This document shows positions 2,291 through 63,598 of a stretch of 64,000 bases of DNA, one piece after another. Source of the DNA: Myxococcota bacterium (GTDB lineage Bacteria > Myxococcota_A > SURF-8); the NCBI GenBank assembly GCA_965140415.1, contig OZ223209.1:2432001-2496000 (forward strand), read 5' to 3'. The notes under the pieces were generated by a model. That model made no database searches. It was not told where the DNA came from and saw only the letters and a program-made list of their open reading frames with translations. A program made the position numbers and the translations under genes. Every line of letters begins with the position of its first letter. Position 1 is the stretch's first letter.

Positions 2291-3370
2291 ATGGAGATCA
2301 GGATGCAGAAAGCGGAGTTAGGTCGTTCATGCAAGCAGTGTGGCGCTTGTTGTCAGTACGAGATTCCAATTACGTTGTACGACATTCAAAATTTAGCTCG
2401 TTCAAGGTCGTTACCGGATAAAGAAGTATTTGCTTTGCTGATCCAAAAAGAAATCTCTTCCAACTCTGGTCTGTATAAGATCAAAAAGAAAGAAGATAAC
2501 AATTGCATTCTATTGGATCATAGCGCCAAATGCTCCGTCCATAAAAGTAAACCGATGGTTTGTGCAATGTATTCATGTGCGCAAGGCAAAAGAGACAAAA
2601 TACTTTCGTGGACGGCTGACTGCCGGGATGAGAAATCGAAGCTTACGGTCTGGAAGCAATCCGTGGCTGTTGCCGTAACGAAAGCCTATATCAAGCGCTT
2701 CGGAGCGACATGGAATGACAAGGCTTATGCTCAAGCGATCACTTCCATAAATACGCAATCAGGCAACGATGGAAAATGCAACGTCAAGTTATCCCAGGAC
2801 AAAGATGGAAACCCCTTGGCGTTGATTTATGATTGTGAAAACTGCGAAAGGAGAGGGCAACACGCGCATGAAACCATCGTAACAATCGATGATGTTTCAA
2901 GAATAAGTAAATTCCTGGGAGTGAGTGCTGAATTCGTCTTTTCAACCTACTTGCATGATGCTCCTTCGTTGAGTACTGGTGGATTGAAAACGATACGAGC
3001 CCAGACGTGCATTTTTCGTGGGGCTTCGGGAAAATGTACGATAGAACAGGTCAGGCCTATGCATTGTCGGTTTACACCATGTCCGTCAAGGGTCAAATCA
3101 AATGACATGATGGACCGCCTGTATCTTGGTGCCGGAACGGTGGAGCAGCAGTTCCGACATCAACTGGCGATGCAATACACGAGAAACTATGTCGAGGAAT
3201 ATGGTGCGGCTTATCATGCACAAGGGATGGTAGCGGCTCAGAAACAGCTTGAGAGGGATGTCAGGGATCAGGTGTTATATAGGCAATTCAGCCTGAAGAT
3301 CGCTCCATACCGTTACCTGGAGGACGCAAGGGGGATTGTTCAGAATACTCAGGTGTCAATAGGTGGGTAG
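2291..3370 (+). CDS. Tandem YkgJ-like (CxxCxxCC, putative Zn/Fe-S cluster) protein
   Basis: CKQCGACC..CILL..CSVHKSKPMVC in the first half; CENC..CIFR..CTIEQVRPMHCRFTPC in the second half. AAGGA RBS upstream. Confidence 0.75.
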   Translation: MEIRMQKAELGRSCKQCGACCQYEIPITLYDIQNLARSRSLPDKEVFALLIQKEISSNSGLYKIKKKEDNNCILLDHSAKCSVHKSKPMVCAMYSCAQGKRDKILSWTADCRDEKSKLTVWKQSVAVAVTKAYIKRFGATWNDKAYAQAITSINTQSGNDGKCNVKLSQDKDGNPLALIYDCENCERRGQHAHETIVTIDDVSRISKFLGVSAEFVFSTYLHDAPSLSTGGLKTIRAQTCIFRGASGKCTIEQVRPMHCRFTPCPSRVKSNDMMDRLYLGAGTVEQQFRHQLAMQYTRNYVEEYGAAYHAQGMVAAQKQLERDVRDQVLYRQFSLKIAPYRYLEDARGIVQNTQVSIGG

Positions 3371-3386
3371 TTGAAGATGATAAAGG

Positions 3387-3424
3387 AAAAGGGCCATGAA
3401 GCCGGTTGGCTTGATGGCCCTTTT
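3387..3424. terminator. Bidirectional rho-independent terminator between convergent genes
   Basis: AAAAGGGCCAT-GAAGCC..GGCTTG-ATGGCCCTTTT; A and T tracts on both flanks. Confidence 0.8.
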
Positions 3425-3452
3425 GTGTTTGTAAGATTGTAATCTGGAATTC

Positions 3453-4538
3453 TTACGCAGGATTCTTGTCGTGGAATTCTTCCATGAACTGTACCAGAGC
3501 CTGTACGCCTTCGATACTCATTGCGTTATACAATGATGCCCGTAAATGACCGACCATGAAGTGACCGGCCAAGCCAACCATGCCGCGTTCCTTTGCTTCC
3601 TGGACGAATTTATCTTCCAGTTCTTTCGTCGGCAACTGCCAGCAGATGTTGGTACGGGAACGATCTTCCTTGACGATCGGGCAGTCGTAGTAGCCGGGGA
3701 AAGCGTCGATTGCTTTATACAGCATGTCGGCGCGTTCGTCGCAGTTTTTGTCCATCTGAGCCAGACCGCCATGCTCCTTGGTCCACTTCAGCACGCTACG
3801 CATCATGTAGATGCAGAACATCGGCGGCGTGTTGTACAGACTGTTGTGCTCGTGGTGAATGTCATAGCGCAAGTAAGCCGGGATATTGCGGTTATTGCCT
3901 TCCATGAACTTCTTGTTCACGATTACCACCGCCATGCCGCCGGGACCGAGGTTTTTGGTCAGTCCGGCGAAGGTCAGCACGATGCGCGACCAGTCGACCG
4001 GGCGGGTCAGAATATCCGAGCTCATATCGGCGATGATCGGTACACCGTTGGTCTCCGGATATTCATGCAGCTCGCTACCGTAGAAGGTATTGTTGGTCGT
4101 AACATACAAGTAGCGGGCGTCTTTGCTGATCGGATAACCTTTGGGGACATAGGTGTACTGCTTATCTTCGTTGTTGGCGATGATGCGGGCGTCGCCGATC
4201 AGTTTGGCGTCGTTATAGGCTTTCTGCGCCCAATGGCCAGTCAACACATGCTCTGCAAAGGTTCCCGGCGTCAGGAAGTTCATCGGGATCATGGCGAACT
4301 GGAGAGTGCCGCCACCACCGAGGAACAATACGCGATGTGTATCCGGAATCTGGAAGACGTCCATCATCAGTTCTTCCGCTTCGCGCTGGATCGCTTCATA
4401 GCCCGGTGTGCGGTGACTGGTTTCCCATAGAGACATGCCGCTGTTTTCGAAATCCTTGCATTGGGAGTGGACTTCCTCCAGTGCGGATTCAGGCAAAGTG
4501 CAGGGGCCGGGGAAGAAATTGTAAACTCGCTTGCTCAT
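3453..4538 (-). CDS. serC: Phosphoserine aminotransferase (SerC)-family PLP enzyme with a variant active site
   Basis: YNFFPGP, SHR, ADMSSDILTRP, KNLGPGG (PLP Lys), NTPP, RASLYNA. Start placed at MSKRV after a GGAG RBS. Canonical AQK is LTK and GHR is GHF. Confidence 0.82.
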   Translation of the reverse strand: MSKRVYNFFPGPCTLPESALEEVHSQCKDFENSGMSLWETSHRTPGYEAIQREAEELMMDVFQIPDTHRVLFLGGGGTLQFAMIPMNFLTPGTFAEHVLTGHWAQKAYNDAKLIGDARIIANNEDKQYTYVPKGYPISKDARYLYVTTNNTFYGSELHEYPETNGVPIIADMSSDILTRPVDWSRIVLTFAGLTKNLGPGGMAVVIVNKKFMEGNNRNIPAYLRYDIHHEHNSLYNTPPMFCIYMMRSVLKWTKEHGGLAQMDKNCDERADMLYKAIDAFPGYYDCPIVKEDRSRTNICWQLPTKELEDKFVQEAKERGMVGLAGHFMVGHLRASLYNAMSIEGVQALVQFMEEFHDKNPA

Positions 4539-4590
4539 TTCAGGTGTCTCCTTTACATCCACGCCACCATCAGGTGCGTGTATGAGAAGG

Positions 4591-4619
4591 GGAGGGGAAC
4601 CCGTAAAAGGTTCCCCTCC
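4591..4619 (-). other. Intercistronic GC stem-loop between xsc and the serC-like gene
   Basis: GGAGGGGAACC-N7-GGTTCCCCTCC, with only a weak pyrimidine tail on the minus strand. Confidence 0.5.
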
Positions 4620-4656
4620 GATCGATTTTTCAAAATTTCAAGCTGCCAGGCGTGCC

Positions 4657-6393
4657 TTATTTCTTGGCAGCCAGGTGCTTGTACTTGGGCAGGAAACGTT
4701 CCGGCATCTTCAATGCGTCGCGACGGAACGGCTCGGCGAGAACTTCTTCTCCACCCTGGATGACTGCATTGATGACACAGGGTTTGCCGCTGGCAACGGC
4801 TTCTTTGACCACGTCGCCGACCTGATCGTAATGATCGACCGTGTAGCCCTTGGCTCCCATGACTTCCGCCAGCTTGGCGTAGTCGGGGTTGGTGGGCAGG
4901 TTCGCGCCGACGAAACGGCTTTCGTAGTAATCGATCTGGTTCTTTTTCTCTGCGCCCCACTCGTGGTTGTTAGCGACCACGGCGATGACCGGGATGTTCT
5001 CGCGAACGGCGGTCATGACTTCGGACATGCCGCTGATGCCGTAGGCACCATCGCCCTGGAACGCGAAGGTCGGAGCGTCGGGGTTGCCGATCTTGGCGCC
5101 CATGGCCGCGCCGTACGCGAATCCGCAGTTACCCCAGGACAACGCGCTGATGTGCTGACGGATGTTGTTGAACTTGAAGTAGGAGTTGCACATCGAAGAG
5201 TTGTTTCCGATGTCGGTGGCAACGATGGAGCCTTCCGGCATGGCCAGAGACAGCTCACGCAGGAAGCGGCGCGGATGCATCAGCGAATTGGTGCTGGTGG
5301 ACCAGTCTTCCAGTTCCGCACCCCAAGTGGCTTTTTCCTGCTCGATGTCGGCAATGCGTTCGGCGTTCGGCTTCAGATCTGCCTTGATGGCCTTGACGGC
5401 TTTGAGCAGTTCGGAGGTGTATTCCTTCACGTCTGCGCAGCTGGCGACGTCCACGTGGCGGCTTAAGCCCAGCACCTTGGCGTCTACATCGACCTGGATC
5501 AGTTTGGCATTCTCGGGGAAGTAGGAAATGTCATACTGCGGCAGGGTGCCGAACGGTCCCAGGCGGCTGCCCAGCGCCAGAACGACGTCTGCTTTGGCGA
5601 TGGTACGCATGGCGGCTTTGGAACCGCAGTAGCCGATCGGACCGACGGACAACTGATGTTTGGACGGGAACGTGTCGTTATGCAGGTAGCTGTTGCAAAC
5701 CGGAGCGGTAAGGTATTCGGCCAGCGCTTTGGTTTCTTCCAGCGCGTCACCCTGGGAAACGCCACCACCGGAAAGGATCACCGGGTATTTGGCGTCCGCC
5801 AGCAATTTCGCTGCGGCTTCCAGATCTTCTTTTGGGCCGACGCCGCGCTTGATCGTCATGGTCGGATAGATTTCGTCTTCCAGCGTACCATAGAAGTAGT
5901 CACGCGGAATATTCAACTGGGTCGGACCGTTTTCCAGTTTCGCCATGTAGAAGGCGCGACGGGTCAGCTCGGCCATACGTTCGTGACGATTGACACGCAC
6001 CTGGTAGACCGTCTGACGACGGAACATGTCCATCTGATCCAGTTCCTGGAAACCACCGGTGCCGATTCCCATCGTGCCGGTTTCAGGAGTGATGGCGACG
6101 ACCGGAGAGTGCGCCCAGTAGGCGGCGACGATGGCGCTGACGAAGTTCGCTGCGCCGGGACCGTTCTGCGCGATGCAGGCTTGCGGACGACCGGTGACGC
6201 GGGCCAGACCGTCGGCGGCATGCGCGGCGGCTTGTTCGTGGGCGACCGGGATGAAGCGAATGCCGGCTGCGGGGAAGAGGTCCAGGGCATCCATGAACGC
6301 GCTGCCGACGATACCGAATACATCGGTGACGCCTTCGGCGACCATGGTCTCGACCATTGCTTCACTGGGGGTCATTTTCATTTTATCGGCCAT
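4657..6393 (-). CDS. xsc: Sulfoacetaldehyde acetyltransferase (ThDP-dependent)
   Basis: MKMTPSEA start, GIVGSAFMDALDLFP, HEQ, AQNGPG, GYCGSKAAM, TLPQY, GDGAYG ThDP motif, WGAEKKNQ and EPFRRDAL are characteristic Xsc segments that distinguish it from AHAS. Confidence 0.92.
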   Translation of the reverse strand: MADKMKMTPSEAMVETMVAEGVTDVFGIVGSAFMDALDLFPAAGIRFIPVAHEQAAAHAADGLARVTGRPQACIAQNGPGAANFVSAIVAAYWAHSPVVAITPETGTMGIGTGGFQELDQMDMFRRQTVYQVRVNRHERMAELTRRAFYMAKLENGPTQLNIPRDYFYGTLEDEIYPTMTIKRGVGPKEDLEAAAKLLADAKYPVILSGGGVSQGDALEETKALAEYLTAPVCNSYLHNDTFPSKHQLSVGPIGYCGSKAAMRTIAKADVVLALGSRLGPFGTLPQYDISYFPENAKLIQVDVDAKVLGLSRHVDVASCADVKEYTSELLKAVKAIKADLKPNAERIADIEQEKATWGAELEDWSTSTNSLMHPRRFLRELSLAMPEGSIVATDIGNNSSMCNSYFKFNNIRQHISALSWGNCGFAYGAAMGAKIGNPDAPTFAFQGDGAYGISGMSEVMTAVRENIPVIAVVANNHEWGAEKKNQIDYYESRFVGANLPTNPDYAKLAEVMGAKGYTVDHYDQVGDVVKEAVASGKPCVINAVIQGGEEVLAEPFRRDALKMPERFLPKYKHLAAKK

Positions 6394-6961
6394 GAGAACT
6401 TCCTTTCCTAATTTGTCTTAGAGTACGGATCTGAATACACCAATTCACTGTTTATTCCGGCTTGTCCATAGAAAGCCGTAATGAATAAGCTGTCATGCTT
6501 TCGGAATTCGGAGCCGAAAGCGATATACGAAAGTTGATGAGTGTGCGTTGCCGTAAACGGCAGCTTCAATTCTCTCCTTCGATGAAAAACGAAGAAGAAA
6601 GATATCAGACCCGTGGGCCTCCTGGATCGCGTTCGCAGGCCCATTCATCCAGCGCGTTATCACGGATGGAGTTGTAATGGCCTTGCAGTCGGAAAATGGA
6701 AGATCGTTTGGTGAGGTAAAACACGGAGGATTCTCCGCTTTGATATCGACGCGAACTCGAAGAGCGAACCATCGTGTTAAGGCCGAAATGATTCATCCCT
6801 GGTACGTACCCCGAAGCTTTAGGCGAGCCACGCATGCGATCTGTCCATCGATACCAATATGCTTAACAGCGTTTACTAACCAAGTCGAAGACTAACTCTC
6901 ATCGACTAACACTCTTTTTTTTCGCTTCTGTCAAGCAAAATATGGAGAGTTTCTATAAAAT

Positions 6962-8032
6962 TTACTTTTGCAGCAACTCATAAGCCAGCTGTGCGATCAT
7001 CCATTCTTCATTCGTCGGGATGACATAGGCGCTGATGGTGGAGTGAGCACTGGTAATTTTGCCTTCATTGCGATTGTTGCTGTCTTTGTCCAATCGAATG
7101 CCGAGATGAGCTAGCGGAGCCAGAATGCTGGCGCGAATCGCTGCGGCGTTTTCTCCGATTCCTCCAGTAAATACAATGGCTTCCACTGGGCCGATTGCTG
7201 CCAGATAAGCGCCGATGGTTTTTCGGATTCGATAACAGAAAATGGAAACAGCCAGTTTGGCGTCTTCATCTGTGCGTTCGAGCAGGGTACGCATATCTTT
7301 TTCATTAGCCAGGCCCATTAGCCCCGACTCGTGCCATAGCAGATGTTCCACCTCTTCAAGAGATAATCCTTGTTTTTGTAAATACAAGGGGATCGCCGCA
7401 TCCAGATCGCCGCAACGGCTGCCCATCACCAAGCCCTCAAGGGGAGTCATCCCCATGGTTGTATCGATGCACTGACCTTCTCGAATGGCGGCGGCACTTG
7501 CTCCAGCGCCAAGATGAAGTAGAATCAGGTTGGGCTGTGGATTACCGGTCATTTGCGTGTATTTACGGGTCAGATAGTGATACGACTGTCCGTGAAACCC
7601 GTATCGGTAGACCTGAAATCGCTCCCTAGTCTCCGATGGTAGTGCGTAGTTTTGTGCTTCTGGTGGCATATTCCTGTGGAAAGCGGTGTCAAATGCGGCC
7701 ACCTGCGGCACGGCCAACACGCTTGTTGCTTCGATTCCAGCCAAGGCAGGAGGATTATGCAGTGGTGCTAGCGGAGACAGCTTTTTCAAGTTTTCAATGA
7801 CTTCCGGTGTAAGCAAAACCGGTTTGTGATATTCCCGGCCACCATGAACGACTCGATGGGCGACGGCATCCGGTTTTTCCGGCAAGGCGTTTAATATTTG
7901 CGTGATTGCGCTGGCATGATTTTCCGTGACTTCGACGAGTCCGGAATCGAGCACAGTAGATTGCGTATCATCCCAGGAATAAAGCTTGAATTTTACGGTA
8001 GAACTTCCGCAGTTGAGTATGAGCAGATGCAT
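6962..8032 (-). CDS. ackA: Acetate kinase
   Basis: LILNCGSSTVKF, HRVVHGG, APLHNP, FDTAFH, RYGFHG, HLGAGAS, TPLEGLVMGSRCGD, FTGGIGEN, PTNEE. GGAGG RBS before ATG 8032. Confidence 0.95.
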   Translation of the reverse strand: MHLLILNCGSSTVKFKLYSWDDTQSTVLDSGLVEVTENHASAITQILNALPEKPDAVAHRVVHGGREYHKPVLLTPEVIENLKKLSPLAPLHNPPALAGIEATSVLAVPQVAAFDTAFHRNMPPEAQNYALPSETRERFQVYRYGFHGQSYHYLTRKYTQMTGNPQPNLILLHLGAGASAAAIREGQCIDTTMGMTPLEGLVMGSRCGDLDAAIPLYLQKQGLSLEEVEHLLWHESGLMGLANEKDMRTLLERTDEDAKLAVSIFCYRIRKTIGAYLAAIGPVEAIVFTGGIGENAAAIRASILAPLAHLGIRLDKDSNNRNEGKITSAHSTISAYVIPTNEEWMIAQLAYELLQK

Positions 8033-8373
8033 GGTACCTCCATCGAGAACAAGATGCTGCGGTCTGCACAGGCAGAACGAATCATGATTTTTGGGGCGTT
8101 GGCCAGGCTGTCGGGATTTATCGACATTAGCCCCGATTCGAAGGCACTTTATCACAGAATTCGCTGGTGCCAATCAATTTTGGAGAAAGATCGTCCGATT
8201 CTCTTTTTGGGCATGTCTATCTTCCTGTTTCTGTTCTTAAATTACAAAAAAGCTAGGCTTGACTTTTCGCTATATAACGGTGTAAACAAAAAGCTCAACA
8301 ACGATGTGACACTTCAATGATATTGCCTTTTGCAGGCAGTGTTTGCCATGCAAGCAAAAGAAGGGGAGTCGAG

Positions 8374-8943
8374 ATGAAAACTGCGTTCGAGGAAATCAGC
8401 GCCAAGGCGCTCAACATCCCGAAGGATTGGCGTGTCGCAAGGCGCTTGAAAGCCAGTACCTGTTCGATATCGCTGCTTGCCTTGGGAGCGACTTTCGAAT
8501 TGACCAGCCAATACGTCGAAGAGATGAAGCAAGAAATCGCAGACTGGGAAGACGGTCGGAAAGTCGGTATAGGCGTTTTGCCGGAAGGTCCGTACATTAC
8601 GATTCAGAAACAGGGCGATCGCTTGCGCTATTTGGGAACGGGATTGATCGACCCCGATATTTCCATCCTGTTCAAGAATCTCGATTCGGCGATCCTGATT
8701 TTTACCGGGATGCTGGGCGCGCCGCAAGCGGTTGCGGAAAACCGTGTCTGCACGCATGGTGAAAACTCGATGGCCATGCAGGTGACGCGCTCGATGGCCA
8801 TTGTTCAGACGTATCTTTTCCCAAGCCTGATTACCAGCCGAACGTTCAAGCGTCCTCCGATTCTGACCGGTAAACAGCTTGCAACCAAAGGGATGATCAT
8901 GGGTCTATTGACTCCCAGGCTTTTGGGACTGGCGATGAAATAA
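8374..8943 (+). CDS. Hypothetical protein with SCP2 (sterol carrier protein 2)-like lipid-binding pattern
   Basis: GPYITIQKQG..PDISILFKNLDSAILIFTG..QAVAENRVCTHGE follows the SCP2 pattern by eye. GGGGAG RBS; first gene before the Fe-ADH. Confidence 0.55.
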   Translation: MKTAFEEISAKALNIPKDWRVARRLKASTCSISLLALGATFELTSQYVEEMKQEIADWEDGRKVGIGVLPEGPYITIQKQGDRLRYLGTGLIDPDISILFKNLDSAILIFTGMLGAPQAVAENRVCTHGENSMAMQVTRSMAIVQTYLFPSLITSRTFKRPPILTGKQLATKGMIMGLLTPRLLGLAMK

Positions 8944-8994
8944 GGATGTCGAAGGTTTTAACCGACGATTTATCGAAATCGATAACGAAAGGGC

Positions 8995-10176
8995 ATGAAC
9001 ATGTTGCCGAAATATTTCGAATTTATCTGTCCCGTAAAAATTTTATCCGGGCGCAAGGCGCTTTCCAACTTGCCGTATGAGTTGAAGCAACTCAATTCAA
9101 TCCATCCCATGGTCATTACCGATAAAGGTGTGGCGCAGGTCGGATTGTTGGATAAAATCAACGCGGCGTTTGCAGATAGCGATATTGAAATCAGTGAAGT
9201 CTTCGATGATACTCCCGCCGACAGCAGCAACCGTGTGATCAACAAGGTTGCCGATCTGTATCGTGAAAAGGGTTGCGATTCGCTCGTCGCAGTCGGCGGT
9301 GGAAGCGTGCTCGATACTGCCAAAGGCGTCAATATCGTCTTGTCGGAAAAAACCGACGATCTACTCAAATTCCAGGGTGTGGATCGTATCGTGGGACCGA
9401 TGCAGCCTTTCATCGCGATTCCGACGACGGCTGGAACCGGTTCGGAAGTAACGGCGGCGGCAGTGATCTACAACGAGGAAAAAGGGGCCAAGATGGCCTT
9501 TATGAGCAACAAACTCTATCCCGATGTGGCAATCGTCGATCCGGCAATGACGGAGACCATGCCGCCTAAAATCACGGCAGCGACCGGTATGGATGCGCTG
9601 ACTCACGCCGTTGAAGCCTATTACTGCTTACAGAAAAATCCGGTTTCCGATGCCTATGCCATCGGTGCGATTCGCCTGATCAAAGAATACCTGATTCCGG
9701 CGGTGGAAGATGGCAGCAATGCGGATGCGCGGCTGGCGATGGCGAACGCGGCCTTATTGGCTGGAATCGCGTTTTCGAATTCCATGGTTGGCATGGTGCA
9801 TGCCCTGGCGCACGCTACCGGCGGTGTGGCGCATGTGCCTCATGGTGTTGCAAATAGCATTCTGCTGCCTTTCGGAATGGAATACAACATCGAGAAGATG
9901 CAACCGGTCATCGCCGAGTTGGCGGATTGGCTGGGCGAGCCGGAAGCGCATCTGGACGAGCGCCAGCGCGCCTATCTGGCGGTGGAATCGGTGCGGCGAA
10001 TGACGGAGCGCTTGCACGAACTCTGCGGTTTACCGCTGACTTTGAAAGAGGCGGGCGTGCAGGAAAGCCAGTTGGAGCAGATCGCCAAGTTGGGCATCGA
10101 CGATGGCGCGTTGACCTACAACCCGGAAGAGATGACCTACGAAGATGGTTTGACGGTATTGAAGAAAGCGTTTTAA
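8995..10176 (+). CDS. Iron-containing (family III) alcohol dehydrogenase
   Basis: GGGSVLDTAK, PTTAGTGSEVT, DALTHAVEAY, HALAH, PHG. Confidence 0.95.
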   Translation: MNMLPKYFEFICPVKILSGRKALSNLPYELKQLNSIHPMVITDKGVAQVGLLDKINAAFADSDIEISEVFDDTPADSSNRVINKVADLYREKGCDSLVAVGGGSVLDTAKGVNIVLSEKTDDLLKFQGVDRIVGPMQPFIAIPTTAGTGSEVTAAAVIYNEEKGAKMAFMSNKLYPDVAIVDPAMTETMPPKITAATGMDALTHAVEAYYCLQKNPVSDAYAIGAIRLIKEYLIPAVEDGSNADARLAMANAALLAGIAFSNSMVGMVHALAHATGGVAHVPHGVANSILLPFGMEYNIEKMQPVIAELADWLGEPEAHLDERQRAYLAVESVRRMTERLHELCGLPLTLKEAGVQESQLEQIAKLGIDDGALTYNPEEMTYEDGLTVLKKAF

Positions 10177-10203
10177 CCGAATTTCAATCCGGTAACTGAT
10201 TAT

Positions 10204-10238
10204 GCCGCGCCCGCCGTAAAAGGCGGGCGCGGTTGTTT
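10204..10238 (+). terminator. Probable rho-independent terminator
   Basis: GCCGCGCCCGCC-GTAAAA-GGCGGGCGCGGT followed by TGTTT. Confidence 0.65.
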
Positions 10239-10266
10239 GCACTCAGCTATGACAAGGAGTCTTACG

Positions 10267-11175
10267 ATGCCCAAAGCAGTGAGTACGATCATCGATTCCG
10301 ATGCCTGCATCGGTTGTGAACGCTGCATTCAAGTGTGCCCGCTGGATACGTTAAGCATGCAAAACGGAAAAGCCGTTGTCAGCGGTTCCGAATCGCTCTG
10401 GTGCGATCACTGTGTGGCGGTCTGCCCGGCCAATGCGATTCGCGTTGAAGGTTTGGATGCAGATTGGCTGAAGCTGGAAACGGTGGAAAATCACGAAAAA
10501 TGGCTGCCCTTTGGCGATTCGGATACGGGAGAACTGGTACGGCTGATGCGCTCGCGGCGTTCGTGCCGAAATTATACGGACAAGCCAGTGCCACTGGAAG
10601 TCTTGAACGATCTGGTGAAAATCGGTACCACAGCGCCTTCCGGTTCCAACTCCCAGTTATGGACCTTTACCATTTTACCGACTCGTGATACCGTAGTGAA
10701 ACTGGGGGAGCATGCACTTCGATTTTTCGAGAAGATCAACAACATGGCGGCCAAATCTAGTTTGCGGATGTATTCCAAGGTTTTCATGAAGGATGCCCTG
10801 GGCATTTACCACAGGGAATATAGCGAATTGGTAAGCAAAGCCATTGCCGATTTTAAAAGTGGCGGAAAAGATCGCATGTTTCACGGCGCGCCGGCTTTGA
10901 TTTTGGTTGGTTCCAAGGAAGGGGCAAGCTGTCCGGTGGAAGATGCCTTGCTGGCCACCCAGAATGTTCTGTTGGCGGCGCATTCGATGGGCTATGGCAC
11001 TTGTCTGATCGGCTTCGCGGTTGAAGCGGTCAAGCGAGACGCCTCGATTCGGCGCTTTTTACAGTTGAATAAAGATGAAAAAATTCATGCCGTGATCGCT
11101 TTAGGTGAGCCGAAAGAAAAGTGGGTACGCCTGACAGGTAGACGGGCAATCACGCCGCGCATCATCAACGGGTAA
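10267..11175 (+). CDS. Nitroreductase-family protein with N-terminal 2x[4Fe-4S] ferredoxin domain
   Basis: CIGCERCIQVCP and LWCDHCVAVCP; RRSCRNY, APSGSNSQLW, LAAHSMGYGTC. AAGGAG RBS. Confidence 0.92.
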   Translation: MPKAVSTIIDSDACIGCERCIQVCPLDTLSMQNGKAVVSGSESLWCDHCVAVCPANAIRVEGLDADWLKLETVENHEKWLPFGDSDTGELVRLMRSRRSCRNYTDKPVPLEVLNDLVKIGTTAPSGSNSQLWTFTILPTRDTVVKLGEHALRFFEKINNMAAKSSLRMYSKVFMKDALGIYHREYSELVSKAIADFKSGGKDRMFHGAPALILVGSKEGASCPVEDALLATQNVLLAAHSMGYGTCLIGFAVEAVKRDASIRRFLQLNKDEKIHAVIALGEPKEKWVRLTGRRAITPRIING

Positions 11176-27207: not shown

Positions 27208-30200
27208 TTATTTTCCGAGGATGGGATCGGAGAAGCGCAAGTACAGGTAATACTCACCTTGGCTGACATTTCCTGAACTGGTGACGCCATCCACGACGAT
27301 GCAGTAGGTGCCCAAGCCAAGCGCCTGGTCGATGATGCGAGGGTTTTGACCCCAGCCACCGACTCCACCGCCATCGTCATTACATGCAATCGTAGTGTAG
27401 GACGAAGCACTACAGGCTCCACTGCGTAACTCCACCGCCGAATCGAAACTTCCAACGACACTGAGACGTTCCAGTGTGACATTGTCACGAATGGAAATTT
27501 GATAGTAGCGATCTGGAGAACCGCTGGTGGTAGCGCAGCTCAAGTCTTCGTTGTCGGCATAGCCAAGGGTGGAACCGCGAACCACGCGGCCCGTCCAACT
27601 GGCACCCCGGCTGTCGTTGAGCCGTTCCGGTACATCGCTGCGACCACCGATGCCAGGTCCGACAAGACGGCCAAGCGTATGAATCGAAATGGATTTTACT
27701 TCGGCAGCCTCGGAAGTGTCGTTGGTGATCGTGACGGTCCAATCTCCGGTCGGTTGAACCGTAAGCAACGTGGACAAATCACTGACTGTTGCATGCGGCG
27801 GATAGTTGGCGATCAGTCGCCAGGCTGTTGGACTGGCGGAGGGCCAAGCTTCCAATTCCCCAACATCATGCGTGGCAAGGGTGACGAAATAGCCGTTGGG
27901 AGCGGTTAAGGTGGTTGTCAACGAACCGCTGGATGGTTCTTCTGCAAATTCTACGTATAGTTCAATGGCGATTTCTTCAAGATCCTGCGTTGCCTGATGC
28001 ACGTTGAAAGAAGCGCTTTCGGATGGTCCCGCCGGGATCTCCACAGAAACTAAATCCAACTCGGTCATGCGAAGTTCCTGATTGATCGGTTCCGGGTTGA
28101 AGGCGGGGGTTAAGGATCGAAGTGCGCTACTGCCATTATTGGCGATGATAAGATCGGTACCGCCGTCTCCATTCAAATCACCGGCTGCAACGCCTTTGGG
28201 ATAGTTGTCAGCAGAATACAGAACCGGTTCCGAAAGTGTGCCGTCGCCATTACCAAGCAAGACTGCTGCGTAGTTGTTTTCAAAGCTACAGGTCGCGATA
28301 TCGTACATGCCATTGCCATCAAAGTCCGAAACGACCAAATCAAAGGTGTCGCCTATGGCTGGGAAGGTTGTGGAGGAATCGAATCCACCTGCTCCGTCGC
28401 CAATAAACAACTCGACCGTGGTTCCGGCGTTGTAGTTGGATGTGATGATGTCGTCCAAGCCATCGCGGTTAAAGTCTGCCACTTGCAATCCATAGTTTCC
28501 GTTGGTTTCAGTGCTGAAGGTTGTTGGCGTTCCGAAGGTACCGGTTGGCTTGCCGCTACCGTCGATTGTTCCAAGTAAAACGCTGAACTTGTACATCCAG
28601 TGACCGACGATAAGATCTACGGCACCATCGTTATTGACATCTGCCGCAGCGATGCTTGTTGGCTCGTCATCTACCGAATACTGGACCTTGGTCCCAAACA
28701 CGCCCGATCCGTTGTTGATATACACGTTGACCATATCGCTATCCTTCGCGACTGCTGCAATATCGGGATCGTCATCGTTGTCGAAGTCCGCCGAGATGAT
28801 GGAGTAGGGGCTTGAATCGGTGGCATAGGTTGTTAAAGCCCCAAGCGCGCCTGCACCATCGCCCATGCGTATGCCGATGGTCCGTGGATGGTAGATGTAT
28901 TCGCAGGAGTTGGTGGCGGCGACATCTCCGTAACCATCTCCATTGAAGTCCATGATGGCCAGATCGGAGGGGTAGCTGATATTGCTGGTTGTATGGGTGT
29001 TGTACATGACAGCCGCTTGAGTGGAACCGTCTCCGTTGCCTAGCAGCAAGGAAAGATAAAAACTCGAATCTTGTGGAACCAGTACGTCAAGGGCACCGTC
29101 CCGGTTTAAATCGGCCAACTGCGGACGTGTATTGGAAGTTCCCGATCCGTGAGTCCGGGTGACGGTCCAGGCGGTTCCCGGAATGTTGATCAGGGTACGA
29201 ATTTGATCTCCACCGTTATAAACCATGGCAAGGTCGATGTTGTAATCGGAACTGAAATTTCCTGTGATAAGGAAACGGGGAGTCAAACCGAAATTTCGTT
29301 CGGCACCGGTGAAACTAGCCGTGCCGTCATTGAAAAGGAAAGTTGCATAAGTCGAACCGTTAAATCCAGCAACAAGATCAACATGGCCATTGCCGTTCAA
29401 GTCCGCAGCGCTGATGGAGGTGACGTCATTGTTTTTGACATCGATGTCGATTGCAGGCTGCATCGTACCATCGCCATTACCGAGCAGGACGTTGACATGG
29501 TCGTCACTGACCCAGGCACCGTTTGCCACTGCGATGTCCAGGACTCCGTCGTGGTTGAAGTCGGCTATCGCAAGGTCGATCGGACCCGCCGAGGTCGCCG
29601 TTACCAACCCGGTTTCGAATGTACCATCGCCTTTATTAAGGAATACGGTTACCCGCGAAGAAGATGCACTGGCGGAAACGATGTCCAGGATGCCGTCGCC
29701 ATTCATATCGGCCAGCTCTGCATCGATCGGACTAGGAGCATACAACGATACTGGTGACTGCGAGAAAGGATCGCTGCCACCGGTATTGAAGTACATCGAC
29801 AATCGATTGCTTTGGCGTTCGGATAACACGATATCGGGGAAGCTGTCTCCATTCAAATCCCCAGCTTCGATATCTTCTGCACTGTTAAGGCCGGAAAGGA
29901 CGTCCGGTTCGTCGAAGGTGCCGTCACTGTTGCCGTAAAGCAGGCTGACAGTGTCCGAGTTCCACTGGTGACCGACTGCAATGTCCGGATAGTTGTCGCG
30001 GTTAAAATCGGCTACAGTCGCGCGTGCCGGATTGCTGCCCAGGTTGTGGCTGTCCAGTTCCATATAACTGGAACTTACCGTGTCATAGTAAAGTGCGGTC
30101 AGGCTGTTGTCGTTATAATTCAATACAACCAGATTTTCCGCGTACGGAGGCAGGTTGGCATTTGATTTGTACGCATGGATGAAGTTAGGACCATCACCAA

Positions 30201-33200
30201 CCGATACGGCTGGTTGAAGGGAGAATGCACCGCTTGGGGGACGGTGCAGTGGTGCATTGAATTCCACCGTATGGGTGCCGGGGCGTGCTCCCAATGCCAA
30301 AGTCCACAGGTTTGTACCCAGCGGGATGCCGGAACCATATTCAAGCGAATTCAGACGATACAGCAATTCACCGTCACCATTATAGCCCGCAAGTGTTTGG
30401 TCGTGGTAGGGACTGGAAAGGAAAAACGCGGCAGACGATTCCAGAGTGTTGACCGTTACCGTGAGGTTGTCCAGTGCATCATAGCGCTCTTCGAAGTAGT
30501 CCGATTCGTAGGTAATGTAATCGGTGTTACGTTGGGTCGATGACGTCAAGGCATCCAAGCTGCGAGCCGCGTAGTTGACTCCAAAGCCCATGGTGGCCTG
30601 GCCACCACCCGGGTTGGGATTGGAAGCCGTAAGTGTGTATGCATCATCCTGGGGCTGGAGGTCCATATCGAAAACCTGCGCTAGGGCGATCTGTCGGTAG
30701 GGATCCCAGGAGGGCGGATCGGGATCGTCGATAACGGAGCGAACCAGTGCATTGGTGCCTTGGATCGAGAAGTCGATGTTATTCATGAATTTACGACCCC
30801 AGATCATCAGATCGAAGCTCTGACTGCTATCGCTTTCCATAACATAACGTATGTTATGCAAGGGTAGCGAACACTGATCGACAATACCTTCCAGGCAGGC
30901 TGTGCTGGCGCTTTCCATAACCGTGAAATCAAAAAGCTCCGGTTTTGGCGCAACGACATTCAAAAATGCGCTATTTACGCTGACACCGGTTCCGGTTACC
31001 GGGCTGGGAGTGACGATACGGGTCAAGTAGCTTCCCGCGTTCTGGACCAAGGCCCAGGCAGGAGAGGAGGGAATCAGTGTGGTGGCGCAACAGTTGTAAC
31101 AATCGGTATCGCTGGGATCGCAACTGTCACCCGCGAGATTGGCATCTGTGCAGGTGACACCGAGCGCCGAACCATCCAATCCGGTGCAGGTCGCCGTCAA
31201 TTCGAAATCGCCAACGCGGATGGCGGTGTCTGTTGCGAATTGGCTTCCTATGACGGTAATCGTGTAGTTGGAAGCACTGAATGCGATCAAGGATTGCGGA
31301 TAAAGTCGGCTCAGAACCGGAACCGGGCGAACCGGTTGAGGCGCGACCAGTTGCAGGGCGAACTCACCGTTGGTTGTACTGCCATTCATGGCTTGATCGA
31401 AGAAACGATAATAGAGTGTCTTCATGCCTAATGAGGTACTGACGGAGAAAACTTTAGACGGCGTAATGGCGGCGCAGGAATCGCCTGTGATCTGACAGCT
31501 ATCCAGATCGGATTCCGTTTCGCTGATTTCAAAGTAAACCGCATCGGAATCCGCCGGGAAGATTTCCACAACGATACTGGCGTCTTCAATCTGAAGTGGC
31601 AGACCGCCATCATCGCTTTCGCCATTTACCTGGATCGTACCCAATTGGGGTGGGCGGGTATCCGCTTCGATCACGCTGAAGAAGGTGTTCGACGTGTTCC
31701 CTGCTTCGTCGATGAATACGGCTGTAACCGTGTTCAATCCGTTGGCGTCGGCAAGTGTCACGTTAAACGGGAAGTCGTCGTAGTCGTGCAGACCGCCGCC
31801 TGCACTCAAGTCGCCACCAAGGCGAACCTGATAACTTGAATCACCGCCCACTACACCAGCAGGTACAATGGCGCTGTTGACCAGATCGTCTCCACCAGCC
31901 AGAAGCAGAGTGCCTGCTACCGGTGGCGTGGTGTCCAGGTATACCGTGTCGTAGTCACTGCTGATGTTGCCTGCACGATCCTTGAAACAGGCGTAGACGC
32001 GACGAGTGCCGTCTACACCGGAGAGTATCCAGCCGGTCATTTGACCGTCTTCAAAACTCTGGTAGGCGGCGGAAGAACAAGTGATGTTTTCATTCGCAAT
32101 GGCAACAAGATTTACATCTGCGGATACGCCGCTGAAGCTTATTGGAACCGAAATGTTATTAGTCGGATCATCTCCTCCGATTTCAATCGTTCCTTCCGGG
32201 GCGTTTGTATCGACAATGCAGGATGTATAAGCCGGTTCACTTGTAACGTTCCCTGCCGAATCCTTCAAGCATAGCCACAAGAAGTTACGAATTCCGCCTT
32301 CCTCGCTGTCCTCACGGATCAAGTCAACAGCAGTGCTTGTGGAAAAGGGGATGTACGTTAAGGCATCTTCGTCCGAGCAGTCCGGGGTAACGAAGCCGGT
32401 TGTGACGGCAATTGCCATACTGGCTGCATCGCTGTGGTTTCTGGTAATCGTGGCATCGGGACGTAAATCATTCGGGCCGCCTGCATCGCGATAGTAGGTT
32501 TGATCCAGGCTTATTGTTCCGGTCGGTTCGACCAGATCGACATAGATCTGCGCCGTGCTCGCGTTGGTGTTTCCTGCGGCATCGCGGAAGCACACGGAGA
32601 TAGAAACCATGCCTTCATCGCCTTGCGGTCGTGTGACGGTGTAGGGCAGGGAAGCCTGGGTGTAATCGGTCCAGGCCGTCAGATCGGCAGTATTGGCATT
32701 GCATTGAGGGGTTGCGGTTTCCAACACCATGAACTGAGAAATCGAGTTGGCATTCACTGGTGGCGCCGGTAGCATTTGCAGGGTGACGGTCAACCCGTTG
32801 GTCGGGCTGGTTTCGGCGATTGTCACAGTGCCGGTCGGCTTGGTTACATCCAGATATACGGTAGTCGTATCAAAGGCAACATTGTCGGCCTCGTCCTTAA
32901 AGCAGACCTTAATGGTCTTCTCGCCTGTCGTCGAATTCACAACGCGAGAGGGATAGGGATTGAATGCTTCGTAAGTGGCAGTGCTACAATCTAATGAACC
33001 TCCACCAATGGACATCCGGTTGACATCTTCCGGTGCCGTTAAGTACAAGGCGATCGTCGGGTCGTTCGTGGGATCATCGCCACGGATCGTGACGGTGGCT
33101 TCTGTCGGAGCATCCAGATCCAAAACAATGCTGTCGGTGGCGATTGTCGTGCGCCCCGATGCATCGCGGAAGCATCCTGCAACCGTCACCGTGCCGGAGG

Positions 33201-36200
33201 TAGAACCCAGATCCAGTTGTTCGATGACCGGGTTACTATGGTTGTATGCAATGTAGCTGGCGCTGCTGCAATCGATGGAAGCCGTGCTTAATCGTTCGAC
33301 TGCAACTTCGGTAACGTCTGAACTGGCGGTCATGATGATATCGGCTGTGTTGTCGTTGGTCGGACCTTCCGCGTCGATCGTCAGTGTCGCAATCGGATTT
33401 TCGCTGTCGAGGAAGATCGAATCGCTGCTATTCGCCGCGTTTCCTGCCTGATCCGTCACTCGCAAATATACGAATTGAGTGCCGTTCCCACTTTCCAGGG
33501 TCCAACTGATGCTGGCCGCACCCGAACCGATATCAACTGTCGTACTGGTATTGAAAGACGCATCGTTACTGACGAGCACTGTAAGGTTGGCCGCCGTGCT
33601 GAGGTTGTCCTGCGCATTCACAGTTAACGATACGCTTCGGGACTGGGTGTAGCTGTCGCCATCGTTGATCTGGATGACCAGATTATGAGGTGCTGTCGTG
33701 TCCAGAATGATGGAACTCTCGATACTCGCAACGTTTCCTGCGGCATCTTTCAACTGTGCTTTGACCGTGCGTTCCCCGTTATTCGATGGCAGCAGCCAGG
33801 AACGGGCGGAAACGTAACTTTCCCAGGGCTCGGTTGTAAAGGTTGAGTTGTTGGTGATACGCATCGAGGTCACATTGGTGGTTGTGTCGTCTACATTGTC
33901 GAAAGAAAGGGTAACGAGTCGATTGTTCGTGCGCTCGTCTCCATCGTTAATCGAAAGCGTACCACTCGGAAGATCCAGATCCAACACCACGCTGTCGCTG
34001 GCGCTGGACGTATTTCCCGCCGCATCCTTGAAACACACGGAAACCGTGATCGTGCCGCTGCTGTCACCGAGCGACCAGGAGGAAATCTGCGACTGGTAAG
34101 GCGTGTCCACTCCGCTGGAACAGTCGATGCTGTCCGTGTTTTCGATCTTCATGTGGGTGGTGTCGGCGCTGGAGGACAGATTCAACGTTGCCGTGTTAAC
34201 GCGAGTCGGGTCCGAACCGAGAATGCTGACGGAAGCTGTGGGATTTTCACTGTCCAGTACGATGTCATCCGTAGAATCGGTTAGATTCCCCGCTTCATCG
34301 ACGATTCGTACATACACGTTTTTAGAGCCATCGCCTTCCGATAAGGTCCAGGCTGTCGTGGCTTGACCGTTGGTGGTCGAAACTGACGTGGCGCCACTGA
34401 ATGACGGTTCGTTGGAGAAGTAGACAACCAGGTCGTTTTGCCCGGTCTCATTGTCTGTTGCAGAGACTGCAAGTGTTACGTTGCGGCTGTTGGTGTAGTC
34501 GTCGTCGCTATTGATTTCGAAACTGGTGATGACCGGAGCCTGGTTATCCAGAATGATGTCATCCGTCAGTAACAGAATATTTCCGGCTGCATCTTTAACC
34601 TGGGCATACACGGTGTGACTGCCATTGGTGGAAGGCAGAACCCAGCCACGAGAAGAAACGAAGACTTCCCATGACAGGCCGTCGAAGGCATTGACGTTGT
34701 TGATCCGCATGGCGGTGACATCGGTTGTGGCGTCGCTGACATCGAAGGTTAATGTAACCGCGGCGTTGTCCGTATGGCTGGCATCTTGGTCGATGACCAT
34801 CGTACCGGTTGGATCGTCCATGTCCAGCGTGACGGGAATTTCAATCGGGCCGTCGGTATGCCCGGCGTTGTCTCGGAAAGAGACCGAAACGCTGCATGCT
34901 CCGGTGTCGCCACAATCACCACCTTCGGTCGTGTCCAGCGTAATGGATGTCTGGCTGCTGAAGGAGATCCACTGAAAGGTGTCTGCGGTGTCAGTGACAT
35001 CCCCTTCGATGTACATCTGGTCCGCCCCTGCCGCATAGGCGATCAGGTTGCAGTCCGGATCGTTCAGGTATTCGCCTTCTTCGATATAGGCATAGGAGCC
35101 GGAAGGTCCGGCGCTGTCCAGAATCGTGCTGTCGCTGGCTTCAACCAGATTGCCGGCCAGATCCTGAACACGCAGATAAACGGTTTTCTGGCCATCGCCT
35201 TCGGACAAGGTCCAGTTGCGCGTGACTCCGCCAGTTGTGTAGCTGCCGGATTCGCTGCTATCGGCAGGGAAGGTCGGGGAGTTTGAAAGCAGATACACCA
35301 GATCCTCGTCCGCGCTAATGCCGTCCTGTGCGGTAATGGTAATGGATACAGTGCCGCTTTGGCTGTAGCCGTCCGTGTCGTTGATGACCAACGACGCGCT
35401 TGGGGCGGCGGTATCCAGCGTAATACTGGCATTGGCCTGGGCCGTATTTCCCGCAAGGTCGATGACTTCTATCCAAACGGTTTTCTCTCCATCCAAAGTC
35501 GGGAGCATCCAACTTTTGGAATCCTGCACCGGTTCATAACTTTCCGTGGTGAAAGGCGCATTGTTGGTCAGCCGCATACCGGCAAGACCGCCCCAGGGTT
35601 CACCATCGGCAGCCAGAATCGTCAATGTAACGGCCCGGCTGTTGCTGTACTCGGCATCCTCGTTGATCTGTAGCGAGACCGTCGGGTCGCTTTCGTCTAG
35701 ATAAAATGAGGTAGTGACACAGTTGGAAACGTTGTGCGCTTCGTCGCGGAACATCACGCTAAAGGTTTTCTGGCCGTTACCGGCGGTTGCCGTAACGGAT
35801 TTCTGCGTGACATATGGCGTCCAGTTGGTTTGCGGACATGTGTCCGATTCGTGTACGGAAAGTTCGCTTGCACCAATGGCGTTTAACGACAACGTCACGG
35901 TGGCGTCGTTTACGATGCTGCCTTGAACAACGGAAATCTGCTCGCCGTAGGGAGCGATGCGATCTAAAATGACCGTTTTCTGGGAGGGTTCGGAGGCATT
36001 GCCTGCGATATCGACGTAGCGCGCGTATACAAGCTGCACACCATCCAGATCGTCCAGCATGAAATCGACCAGTCCGCCTACTGGCAGATCGAACGGCGCT
36101 TCGGAAAAGGCGATTTCGCTGTCGATTTGTACCCGAACATCCGTTGGGGCGTTGGTGAATTGAAGCTGAATGGCTTCGCTGCGTGCATATGAACCGTGAA

Positions 36201-39855: not shown

Positions 39856-39905
39856 GTTCCGATCTCCACTCATCGGTTGTTCCTCCAGTAAAGCAGGCTC
39901 GTGCG

Positions 39906-40910
39906 TTAGTAGCTCAGCAGTACGTTCAATCCCACAGCCGGGGCTTCTGTCGTACCCAACATGCCGGGAGCGACATTCGTATCGACGGCGGAAACCTTTT
40001 CAACGCCTTGCTCGGTGCGCCGGTAATTGGGACCGCTGATGGCGGCATCCAGCACGTTGATCAGCCAAACGCCTACGGCTGCACCGATCATGATGTCTCT
40101 TGCGAGCCACAAGTCGTTACGCTTGTCTTGCAGTTCCTGGCGCTTGTTCGGGTTCTTCTGGAAGTCCTCCAGCGTCAAGTTTTCGTAGTCGTCCTGTACG
40201 GCGGCTCCTGTGAAGTGCAGTGCCAATACAGCCGCTACCGAAGCGATTTCTGCCGAAATGAAGACACCGGCTTTGATCGGTTCTTCGTTGTATAGCTGCC
40301 CCCAGCCGGGAGCGATCATGGAACGATAAGCCGCCCCCCAACTGCTTTTCAAAACAACCGCCTCGCTGCCGATGGCGATCAGGTGCGAGGAATGTACCTC
40401 GACCTGTTGAGCGCTTAGCGCAGTTCCGTTTTCACGGGATACGGCGCGCACGTTGATGAGGTAACGGTCGCCGACTTCGCTGACCGATCCCAGAATCAGG
40501 ATGTCCGCTCCGACCAGACCCGCAACTTCCGCCGCTTTTTCGTCGTCGATCAGCCCCAGTTGAGCCATTTCGGCTTCCTTCAGGATATCTGCCAGTCGTT
40601 CGCGTTCAACTAGGACATAGCCCTTGTTGGCGAGCTTCGTATGCAGTTCTCCTTGAACGGCAGCGCCCAACTCCTTTTGCCTGGCCTGCTCGCCATTTTC
40701 CGCCAACTTCATTACGGCCAGTGTGGCGTCGGATTTGCCCATGTTCTGCAAATCGAGATCCAGTTGATCGACCAGTAGATCCAATGAAGAAGTGACTTTT
40801 CCCTTGTCCTGGTCTGCTGGCGGCTCTTTAGCTTGTGCTTCGGCGGCGAAGGCAATTCTACAAAGAGATAGGCACAACAAAACCCCTACGAGTAAAGCTG
40901 TTCGTTTCAC
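39906..40910 (-). CDS. Secreted CsgG/FlgO-like domain protein with DUF5683-like C-terminal region
   Basis: Signal peptide ending AFA; YVLVERERLADILKE..GLID..AGLVGADILILGSV; AYRSMIAPGWGQLYN; WLINVLDA; terminal amphipathic strand ending in Tyr. Confidence 0.72.
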   Translation of the reverse strand: MKRTALLVGVLLCLSLCRIAFAAEAQAKEPPADQDKGKVTSSLDLLVDQLDLDLQNMGKSDATLAVMKLAENGEQARQKELGAAVQGELHTKLANKGYVLVERERLADILKEAEMAQLGLIDDEKAAEVAGLVGADILILGSVSEVGDRYLINVRAVSRENGTALSAQQVEVHSSHLIAIGSEAVVLKSSWGAAYRSMIAPGWGQLYNEEPIKAGVFISAEIASVAAVLALHFTGAAVQDDYENLTLEDFQKNPNKRQELQDKRNDLWLARDIMIGAAVGVWLINVLDAAISGPNYRRTEQGVEKVSAVDTNVAPGMLGTTEAPAVGLNVLLSY

Positions 40911-42661: not shown

Positions 42662-42990
42662 ATTGACTCGCTTTACACAAATTGAGAGTAGGAAACATTC
42701 CATAACCGGATATGAACTCTTCCACGATTCATTCCCTATTTATCATTATCTCCGTGATATGGCCATGCTTTTTCTTGTTGCCAATATGGGGAAAGCGACT
42801 GTTACAAACTTGCATATTAAGGGTACTCTGCTTAAAAAGATTGAATCCCCATTCAATCCATGCTAGGTATTTCATAATCTGACGTTTGCCAGAACCCATA
42901 CAAGAAGTGATAAGCGGAAGACTTGTGAGAGACGGTTTGTGTATCGTGGTTTGATACTTGAAGTAACCACTGCAAGTGGAAGGAGGAACG

Positions 42991-43824: not shown

Positions 43825-43848
43825 CCGTCGTGAAAGGATAGGTGAAGC

Positions 43849-52195: not shown

Positions 52196-52219
52196 GGTTC
52201 ACTCTCAATAAAGATCGAT

Positions 52220-54154: not shown

Positions 54155-54182
54155 GTAAAACTCCATCGAGTGATTTGAAGCA

Positions 54183-59235: not shown

Positions 59236-59251
59236 GATGTTTCCCCTTTAG

Positions 59252-63595: not shown

Positions 63596-63598
63596 CAA

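Follow-up and report, generated by a model that had tools for sequence, protein, structure and literature searches.

A SerC-derived class V aminotransferase encoded beside xsc in a Myxococcota bacterium, a candidate taurine aminotransferase

The stretch analysed here (the window) comprises 64,000 nucleotides of a Myxococcota bacterium, positions 2,432,001 to 2,496,000 of contig OZ223209.1 in assembly GCA_965140415.1. It carries xsc, the gene of sulfoacetaldehyde acetyltransferase, and directly downstream of it a gene for a protein of the SerC type (P0001; the gene is called serC' below). SerC is the phosphoserine aminotransferase (PSAT), an enzyme with the cofactor pyridoxal phosphate (PLP). 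In PSAT1 of Arabidopsis (AtPSAT1), as described in the available text of PMC6043687, two pairs of residues hold the phosphate of phosphoserine: H396 and R397, which belong to a gate-keeping loop (residues 391-401) that closes on binding, and H110* and R111* (asterisks mark residues of the dimer mate). R403 and W171 bind the substrate carboxylate. The PLP phosphate is bound by the backbone of A145 and T146, by N306* and T307*, and by the Q264 side chain, which neighbours the Schiff-base K265 (PMC6043687). In human PSAT, according to the available text of PMC10031235, His44, Arg45, His335, Arg336 and Arg342 have the same roles. For sulfonates, a taurine route from Tpa through Ald, Xsc and AckA to DsrAB is established in Taurinivorans muris (available text of PMC10507020).

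The closest known enzymes are the class V type 1 PSATs, for example those of Bacillus circulans (1W3U, 1BT4), B. alcalophilus (1W23) and Arabidopsis (6CZX-6CZZ). P0001 keeps the PLP lysine, the Asp, the Trp, the dimer-mate Asn-Thr, the SHR pair and the alpha-carboxylate Arg of these enzymes, whereas it has a rebuilt gate loop and second phosphate-binding pair and altered PLP-phosphate ligands. Unlike serC, the genes of its clade have no linkage to serine genes and are linked to xsc in every locus with context. With the class III omega-aminotransferases Tpa (taurine:pyruvate aminotransferase) and Toa (taurine:2-oxoglutarate aminotransferase) P0001 shares the slot immediately next to xsc and near ack (loci L076, L039 and L043 compared with the order ack, xsc, serC' in the window), and its host resembles T. 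muris in joining sulfite reduction by DsrAB to Xsc and AckA (PMC10507020, available text). It differs from Tpa and Toa in being a PF00266 (class V) and not a PF00202 (class III) protein, apparently an independent recruitment from SerC, and the genome differs from the Tpa-Ald-Xsc arrangement in having no Ald over the cut-off. P0001 is thus predicted to work in the place of Tpa without belonging to the Tpa family. PhnW, a class V enzyme of the AGAT branch, transaminates a 2-aminoethyl compound with an anionic group, and the fold is therefore capable of omega-type chemistry on a taurine analogue. PhnW belongs to another class V branch, however; P0001 had no PhnW-model match among six NCBIfam families at E <=0.001, and the substrate of PhnW is a phosphonate and its partner a phosphonatase, not Xsc.

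In the original prediction serC' was read as encoding a repurposed sulfonate transaminase that feeds Xsc. This reading is supported in silico by paralogy, remodelling of the active site, synteny and displacement of class III enzymes. In its more specific form, to which a probability of about 0.55 is given on the sequence evidence, P0001 would be a SerC-derived taurine aminotransferase feeding an Xsc-Ack-Dsr pathway.

The serC' gene and its origin

The genes on which the argument rests are the following.

3453..4538, minus strand: serC', gene of the SerC-derived class V aminotransferase P0001; 361 amino acids (aa) plus a stop codon, no internal stop
4536-4538 and 3453-3455, minus strand: ATG and stop codon of serC', with an AAGGAG ribosome-binding site just upstream of the ATG
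4657..6393, minus strand: xsc, sulfoacetaldehyde acetyltransferase, 578 aa; TIGR03457 at 780 bits (cut-off 676), NF005713 at 859 bits (cut-off 620)
6962..8173, minus strand: ack, acetate kinase; TIGR00016 at 386 bits (cut-off 293), PF00871

The xsc gene lies upstream of serC' on the same strand, separated from it by exactly 118 bp, and is the single match over the cut-off in a genome-wide profile search. In a Pfam scan P0001 matched PF00266 (class V) only. It scores above the cut-off of the equivalog NF003764 (420 bits, cut-off 253) and below that of the stricter equivalog TIGR01364 (408 bits, cut-off 443.6). Its best solved relatives are the Bacillus PSATs; the match to 1W3U (343 bits, E 1.6e-101, residues 1-356 aligned) places the PSAT fold of P0001 beyond question.

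Protein searches covered 5.8 billion clusters. Ten of these, P0001-P0010 (62-100% identical), ranked first in the single-protein search with 516-855 bits, against at most 481 bits for the rest, and the same ten reached 687-706 bits in the profile search, with the next protein at 594. The N-terminus MSxRVxNF is common to all ten members in the alignment. In a maximum-likelihood tree (60 rows, LG+C20+F+G4) the variant clade has a support of 100/100, and its stem is 0.43 substitutions per site long. It falls within a larger clade (100/99) that also contains canonical SerCs of the same lineage, the sister group being supported at 96/87. Canonical SerCs share a chromosome with variants, P0014 with P0001 and P0017 with P0009. 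The simplest history suggested by these data is that serC was duplicated within this lineage and that one copy then diverged rapidly.

The genome of the window is a single 5.98-Mb contig, 93.7% complete. A second, canonical serC, for which the original prediction had recommended a search, is present 600 kb away (C1:3037288-3038358) with the motifs GHRSVGGCRAS, VQK and NFAAGPC. Its product (P0014) is 57% identical to P0001; on this comparison P0001 is a paralogue, not the housekeeping SerC of the genome. The observation that no serA lies nearby also held: no serA-type Pfam match was obtained with 43 open reading frames (ORFs) of the window, a scan that left out the 4221-aa ORF and one 103-aa ORF. 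The nearest serA-like gene is found about 820 kb away (C1:1612719-1613678); it is short and without an AGAT-type partner.

Remodelling of the active site

The active-site elements are listed below; the counterparts given in brackets are those named in the available texts of PMC6043687 and PMC10031235.

3546..3578, minus strand: loop residues 321-331, VGLAGHFMVGH, probable counterpart of the PSAT gate-keeping loop, with K324A, R327F and G331H
3540..3542, minus strand: Arg333 of RAS, the alpha-carboxylate-binding Arg, kept in 10/10 variants (R403 in PMC6043687, Arg342 in PMC10031235)
3954..3962, minus strand: L193-T194-K195; K195 is the PLP Schiff-base Lys, and T194 stands for the Gln that hydrogen-bonds the PLP phosphate (Q264 and K265 in PMC6043687)
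4410..4418, minus strand: S41-H42-R43, the first of two His-Arg pairs in the anion pocket; in PSAT the dimer mate supplies it (H110* and R111* in PMC6043687)
4308..4310, minus strand: Gly77 (GGGT), in place of the Ala of the PLP-phosphate-binding turn GGA[ST] (backbone amides of A145/T146 in PMC6043687)

The motifs on which the original prediction was built were all found in place: GHFMVGHLRAS at residues 325-335 (3534-3566) with the Phe327 codon at 3558-3560, LTK at 193-195 (3954-3962), NNT at 149-151 (4086-4094) and FFPGP at 8-12 (4503-4517). The residues described there as retained, namely SHR (41-43), the PLP Lys195 and the carboxylate-binding Arg333, are invariant in the ten variants (S41, H42, R43, K195, R333).

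Specificity was assessed in an alignment of the 120 best hits, comprising the 10 variants and 110 canonical SerCs. Eight positions define the clade, the canonical residue being 89-99% conserved and kept by at most one variant: A77G, H145Y/W, Y190F, Q194T, R301 lost, K324A/G/P/E, R327F and G331H/F/K. Position 327 is F in 10/10 variants and R in 98% of the canonical SerCs; position 194 is T in all variants (Q in 99% of the canonical proteins), and position 77 is Gly in all variants (Ala in 99%). His326 is His in 7/10 variants and Tyr or Phe in the rest. Two of the four motif changes originally pointed out, R327F and Q194T, thus proved specific to the variants, whereas NNT and FFPGP did not. NNT is also present in the canonical SerC of this genome and in close relatives of that protein and, judged by this distribution, is lineage background and no part of the change; the Pro of xxPGP also occurs in some canonical SerCs (NFNPGPA). 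Specific changes beyond the original list are A77G, H145Y/W, Y190F, G331H and the loss of R301 and K324. F327 and T194 were found together in none of the other 165 family proteins compared. Since the pattern is common to all ten clade members and absent from these 165 proteins, it is far beyond chance.

The residue roles of AtPSAT1 appear to map onto P0001 by motif spacing, consistently for every motif and in agreement with the residue-by-residue alignment to B. circulans PSAT, to whose motifs K195, D171, W103 and R333 align. H42/R43, W103, D171, K195, N236/T237 and R333 are kept in all ten variants, and Thr151 of the PLP machinery is kept in P0001. On this mapping A77 and Q194 would be PLP-phosphate ligands that have been replaced, and K324, R327 and G331 would belong to a substrate-phosphate gate loop that has been rebuilt. 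Three positive charges are lost in P0001 (R301, K324 and R327). The two His-Arg clamp pairs of SerC, SHR and GHR, are not both kept: SHR stays and GHR becomes G[H/Y/F]F. The cofactor chemistry, the alpha-carboxylate site and one half of the anion pocket therefore seem intact, and the mobile cationic half of the phosphate clamp seems to have been turned into an aromatic, largely uncharged lid. If taurine is the substrate, the remodelled, less cationic and more aromatic pocket would bind its shorter, singly charged sulfonate against His42/Arg43, and Arg333 would serve the 2-oxo-acid co-substrate, either 2-oxoglutarate, as in the ancestor, or pyruvate.

The same phosphate-binding Arg is lost in another lineage, in P0123, an otherwise canonical SerC relative that keeps AQK and has GHS for GHR.

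Linkage to xsc, pathway context and competing explanations

Gene context is available for six loci: the window and the loci L008-L011 and L020, which came from pattern scans with the clade alignment and consist of four genome loci and one metagenome contig. Four clade members (P0003, P0004, P0006 and either P0005 or P0008) stand outside this set. In 6/6 loci xsc lies directly upstream of the variant on the same strand, so that the suggestion that the GHF variant tracks with xsc was borne out. In the five fetched loci Xsc is 82-86% identical to that of the window and its gene ends 90-200 bp upstream of the variant.

Distribution was surveyed in an even set of 401 genomes of the phylum. Xsc matched in 38 genomes at E <=1e-150 (36 over the cut-off) and P0001 in six at E <=1e-120. 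Five of the six have a copy at least 62% identical, and these (G000, G024, G030, G012 and G018) are the very genomes of the window's order that bear xsc; the sixth, G054, has a canonical copy only, 55% identical. The order is represented by ten sampled genomes, and the other five have neither xsc nor the variant; two of these are 79-86% complete. In one aquatic metatranscriptome library four contigs of 174-227 nt, 90-96% alike, fall on the two genes, one on serC' (3655-3880) and three on xsc, and most of the differences listed on the serC' contig are spaced in multiples of three. This hints weakly at expression of both genes in nature, the contigs being from a relative and an RNA library being able to contain DNA. 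Three sequencing runs of one study hold the stretch near-identically; they may be the source of the assembly itself and are thus not independent.

In relatives the slot beside xsc is occupied by another family. A survey of 25 other loci of the phylum (1.5-kb xsc flanks; 42 of about 95 flanking ORFs scanned, the longer ones) gave a class III aminotransferase next to xsc in eight (L034, L035, L038, L039, L040, L042, L043 and L044), and ack is adjacent to xsc in L030, L039 and L043. The Xsc proteins closest to that of the window outside its order are encoded at L076-L079 (72-76% identical; L076, 76%). The order at L076 is xsc, class III aminotransferase, ack, and at L079 xsc, ack; at L075 a class III aminotransferase precedes xsc. 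The class III enzymes adjacent to xsc match AptA at 587-619 bits (cut-off 500), PRK07678 at 567 (488) and PRK06062 at 471 (472). The search for tpa recommended with the original prediction gave, in the genome of the window, at best 183 bits for the AptA type and 173 bits for the PRK07678 type, both below their cut-offs; the PRK06062 type reached its cut-off in 0/5 variant genomes, the best match (282 bits) being a gene unlinked to xsc. A SerC derivative where the nearest relatives have a Tpa-like enzyme is the pattern of non-orthologous gene displacement.

The remaining steps of the pathway are represented in the genome of the window. Xsc would convert sulfoacetaldehyde into acetyl phosphate and sulfite, Ack would gain ATP from acetyl phosphate, and DsrAB would respire the sulfite; dsrA is over the cut-off in 5/5 variant genomes (581 bits in that of the window, cut-off 393). 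The neofunctionalised PSAT paralogue would supply the sulfoacetaldehyde, most probably by transamination of taurine, and the whole would be a taurine respiration of the Tpa-Xsc-AckA-Dsr type with a non-orthologous aminotransferase. Sulfopyruvate decarboxylase ComD was found in 0/5 variant genomes, and the best ComE match in the genome of the window reached 38 bits against a cut-off of 221; as these genomes are 93-96% complete, absence of ComDE is likely and not proven. If ComDE is absent, the product of the SerC variant has to be the direct substrate of Xsc, and sulfopyruvate derived from cysteate has no known route to Xsc. Of the substrates "cysteate or taurine" originally proposed, taurine is therefore favoured and cysteate disfavoured. 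With regard to the amino acceptor, the genome has two genes of the Glu/Leu/Phe/Val dehydrogenase family. The ancestral PSAT uses glutamate and 2-oxoglutarate. The dehydrogenase genes and the ancestral enzyme lean towards 2-oxoglutarate, whereas the lost cationic residues point in the opposite direction.

Several points weigh against the taurine assignment. The substrate is deduced from gene neighbourhood and residue changes, the residue roles are mapped by motif spacing and not on a coordinate model, and Arg333 and His42/Arg43 would suit an alpha-amino acid such as cysteate equally well. Beyond xsc no neighbour is conserved: ack is present in 2/6 loci (the window and L010), and the other neighbours of the xsc-serC' pairs are two-component systems, transposases and unrelated enzymes. 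The five variant genomes are kin, so that the co-occurrence with xsc counts as one inherited event and not as five independent ones. The six loci contain no linked gene for a taurine transporter, a TauR-type regulator or an alanine dehydrogenase (the genome was not searched for a transporter or tauR), and the best TIGR00518 match for Ald in the genome of the window reaches 148 bits (cut-off 392). Finally, the two genes are separated by a hairpin.

4591..4619, in the 118-bp xsc-serC' spacer: GC-rich hairpin of 11 bp without a U-tract on the coding strand

A strong GC-rich hairpin stands between xsc and serC' in 6/6 loci, with unrelated sequences and a clear U-tract only in L020, and co-transcription is thus not assured; xsc and serC' may have different expression levels or separate promoters. 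In a terminator scan of 3200-8400 the hairpin of the window scored on the non-coding strand only.

Among the other explanations, the one that survives best is that P0001 is an aminotransferase for another amine or amino acid tied to Xsc, such as hypotaurine or 2-aminoethylphosphonate, or for a step that recycles the amino donor. What is established is the link to xsc and the remodelled pocket, the conserved neighbourhood offers no transporter or regulator from which the substrate could be read, and class V enzymes include a 2-aminoethylphosphonate:pyruvate aminotransferase. This is nevertheless unlikely, because the products of hypotaurine or a phosphonate would not need Xsc and, from pathway knowledge (PMC10507020, available text), taurine is the only known amine that yields sulfoacetaldehyde by a single transamination.

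It is improbable, by a similar weighing, that P0001 is an L-cysteate:2-oxoglutarate aminotransferase whose product, 3-sulfopyruvate, is converted into sulfoacetaldehyde by decarboxylation ahead of desulfonation, either by Xsc or by an enzyme not recognised so far. Cysteate, a shorter and singly charged analogue of phosphoserine, would demand the smallest chemical step from the ancestral substrate; the invariant Arg333, Trp103 and His42/Arg43 are in keeping with an alpha-amino acid whose side chain is anionic, and the two dehydrogenase-family genes could recycle 2-oxoglutarate. Against this stand the missing ComD and the ComE score given above, the loss of R301, K324 and R327, which would fit substrates less negative than the set of cysteate, glutamate and 2-oxoglutarate, and the pairing of the 76%-identical Xsc of the sister lineage with a class III omega-aminotransferase. 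Class III omega-aminotransferases act on omega-amines such as taurine and are not known to act on cysteate.

A divergent second phosphoserine (or phosphohydroxythreonine) aminotransferase, with its place beside xsc an inherited accident or a regulatory coupling, is very improbable. One argument in its favour comes from two of the five variant genomes: canonical type-1 serC is present in G000, G012 and G030, whereas in G018 (96% complete) and G024 (94%) no canonical SerC of type 1 passes the cut-off. P0001 may thus retain some PSAT role, a point that weighs against the taurine reading as well. In these two, however, an AGAT-type class V aminotransferase gene lies directly upstream of a short, ACT-less SerA-like dehydrogenase gene in an operon-like pair (L086 1426-3535 and L087 1459-3596). 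The dehydrogenases match TIGR01327 at 390-401 bits over its first 312-315 positions, and the aminotransferases match BhcA/PhnW-like models, all below the cut-off. The AGAT-type enzyme is a plausible candidate for an alternative phosphoserine aminotransferase, so that all five genomes would carry a putative housekeeping PSAT elsewhere, either a canonical serC or an AGAT-type/serA pair. The score over the NF003764 cut-off also speaks for a PSAT isozyme, the shortfall against TIGR01364 speaks against it. Arg336 of human PSAT is flexible and does not always contact the anion (PMC10031235, available text), but R327F, K324A/G, G331H and Q194T, fixed in 10/10 variants, alter residues with 95-99% conservation among the 110 canonical SerCs, and adjacency to xsc is kept in all six loci while all other neighbours differ.

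Equally remote is a two-enzyme cysteate pathway in which the SerC derivative forms 3-sulfopyruvate and this Xsc clade accepts it directly, making ComDE needless, by thiamine diphosphate-dependent decarboxylation to the same enamine as from sulfoacetaldehyde, elimination of sulfite and phosphorolysis to acetyl phosphate: it agrees with the retained alpha-carboxylate Arg and the absence of ComDE and would mean a new aminotransferase specificity together with a new Xsc reaction, and it is weakened by the same class III pairing of the 76%-identical Xsc.

Surrounding features and implications

The spacer between ack and xsc is long.

6394..6961: non-coding spacer of 568 bp between ack and xsc; no convincing ORF, no Rfam match

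It is presumably the promoter or regulatory region of xsc. A permissive Rfam scan of window positions 3000-9000 gave no riboswitch or leader match. Small ORFs in this spacer and upstream of xsc in L010 and L011 were discarded; their translations are non-coding-like and have nothing in common. A sigma-54 promoter upstream of xsc was likewise rejected as a common feature, a consensus-like site being present in one of the six upstream regions only. That site, a -24/-12 element at -154 of xsc, is in L020; the window gave none. A gene for a sigma-54 activator stands upstream of xsc in L009. A sigma-70 scan of 3200-8400 gave one promoter-like site against 3.8 expected from shuffles, which says nothing on operon structure. 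The hairpin between xsc and serC' may serve as an attenuator, or may stabilise the mRNA, and in this way set the ratio of Xsc to aminotransferase.

The ack ORF as listed begins at TTG; its true start is likely the ATG at 8030-8032 (MHLLILNCGSS...). Divergent from ack, the region 8317-11175 (plus strand) encodes a 208-aa protein without family match, an iron-containing alcohol dehydrogenase and a ferredoxin-nitroreductase fusion. The alcohol dehydrogenase (8995-10176) was considered as the sulfoacetaldehyde reductase SarD and rejected (242 bits, cut-off 700); it is closest to ErcA and lactaldehyde reductase. In two large myxobacterial genomes an SBF (sodium/bile-acid symporter family) gene lies near xsc, at L076 (9599-10558) and at L078 (3224-4150). 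The SBF transporter of L076 and L078 is a candidate sulfonate importer there and is absent from the six variant loci.

Further features of the window were noted.

27208-39873, minus strand: one ORF of 4221 aa; a gene for a CsgG/FlgO-like lipoprotein (39906-40910) flanks it
42976-44859, plus strand: a transketolase split into two genes, one for the N-terminal and one for the C-terminal half, followed by an uncharacterised 256-aa protein, an AAA ATPase and a VWA/CoxE-like protein
50582-63596, minus strand: genes for a regulator of the GntR/FadR type (62811-63596), a glycyl radical enzyme of 838 aa with its activase, a PNPOx-like protein, two class III aminotransferases, a zinc-dependent alcohol dehydrogenase, a metallophosphoesterase and an uncharacterised 537-aa protein

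The last of these clusters may encode a radical-enzyme pathway, so far uncharacterised, that acts on an amine or a sulfonate. Its glycyl radical enzyme (60298-62814) was rejected as an isethionate or dihydroxypropanesulfonate lyase, being below every NCBIfam equivalog cut-off (the best matches are HypD, 375 bits against 1100, and HpfG, 367 against 1000); it lies 55 kb away.

As P0001 fails the phosphate-clamp features of SerC, it should not be annotated as a phosphoserine aminotransferase; because it scores above the NF003764 cut-off, annotation pipelines will call the gene serC. A full-text literature search, with subscription journals outside its coverage, found no paper tying SerC to Xsc, taurine or sulfoacetaldehyde. 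If the taurine reading is right, P0001 would be the first SerC-type (class V) aminotransferase acting on a sulfonate, and a natural case of an enzyme changing jobs, its phosphate clamp dismantled by a few traceable substitutions after duplication. Residues 77, 194, 324, 327 and 331 form a short list of candidate specificity switches for PSAT engineering. Metagenomic surveys of taurine-driven sulfide that count tpa and toa would, in that case, miss these sulfite-reducing bacteria labelled as Myxococcota.

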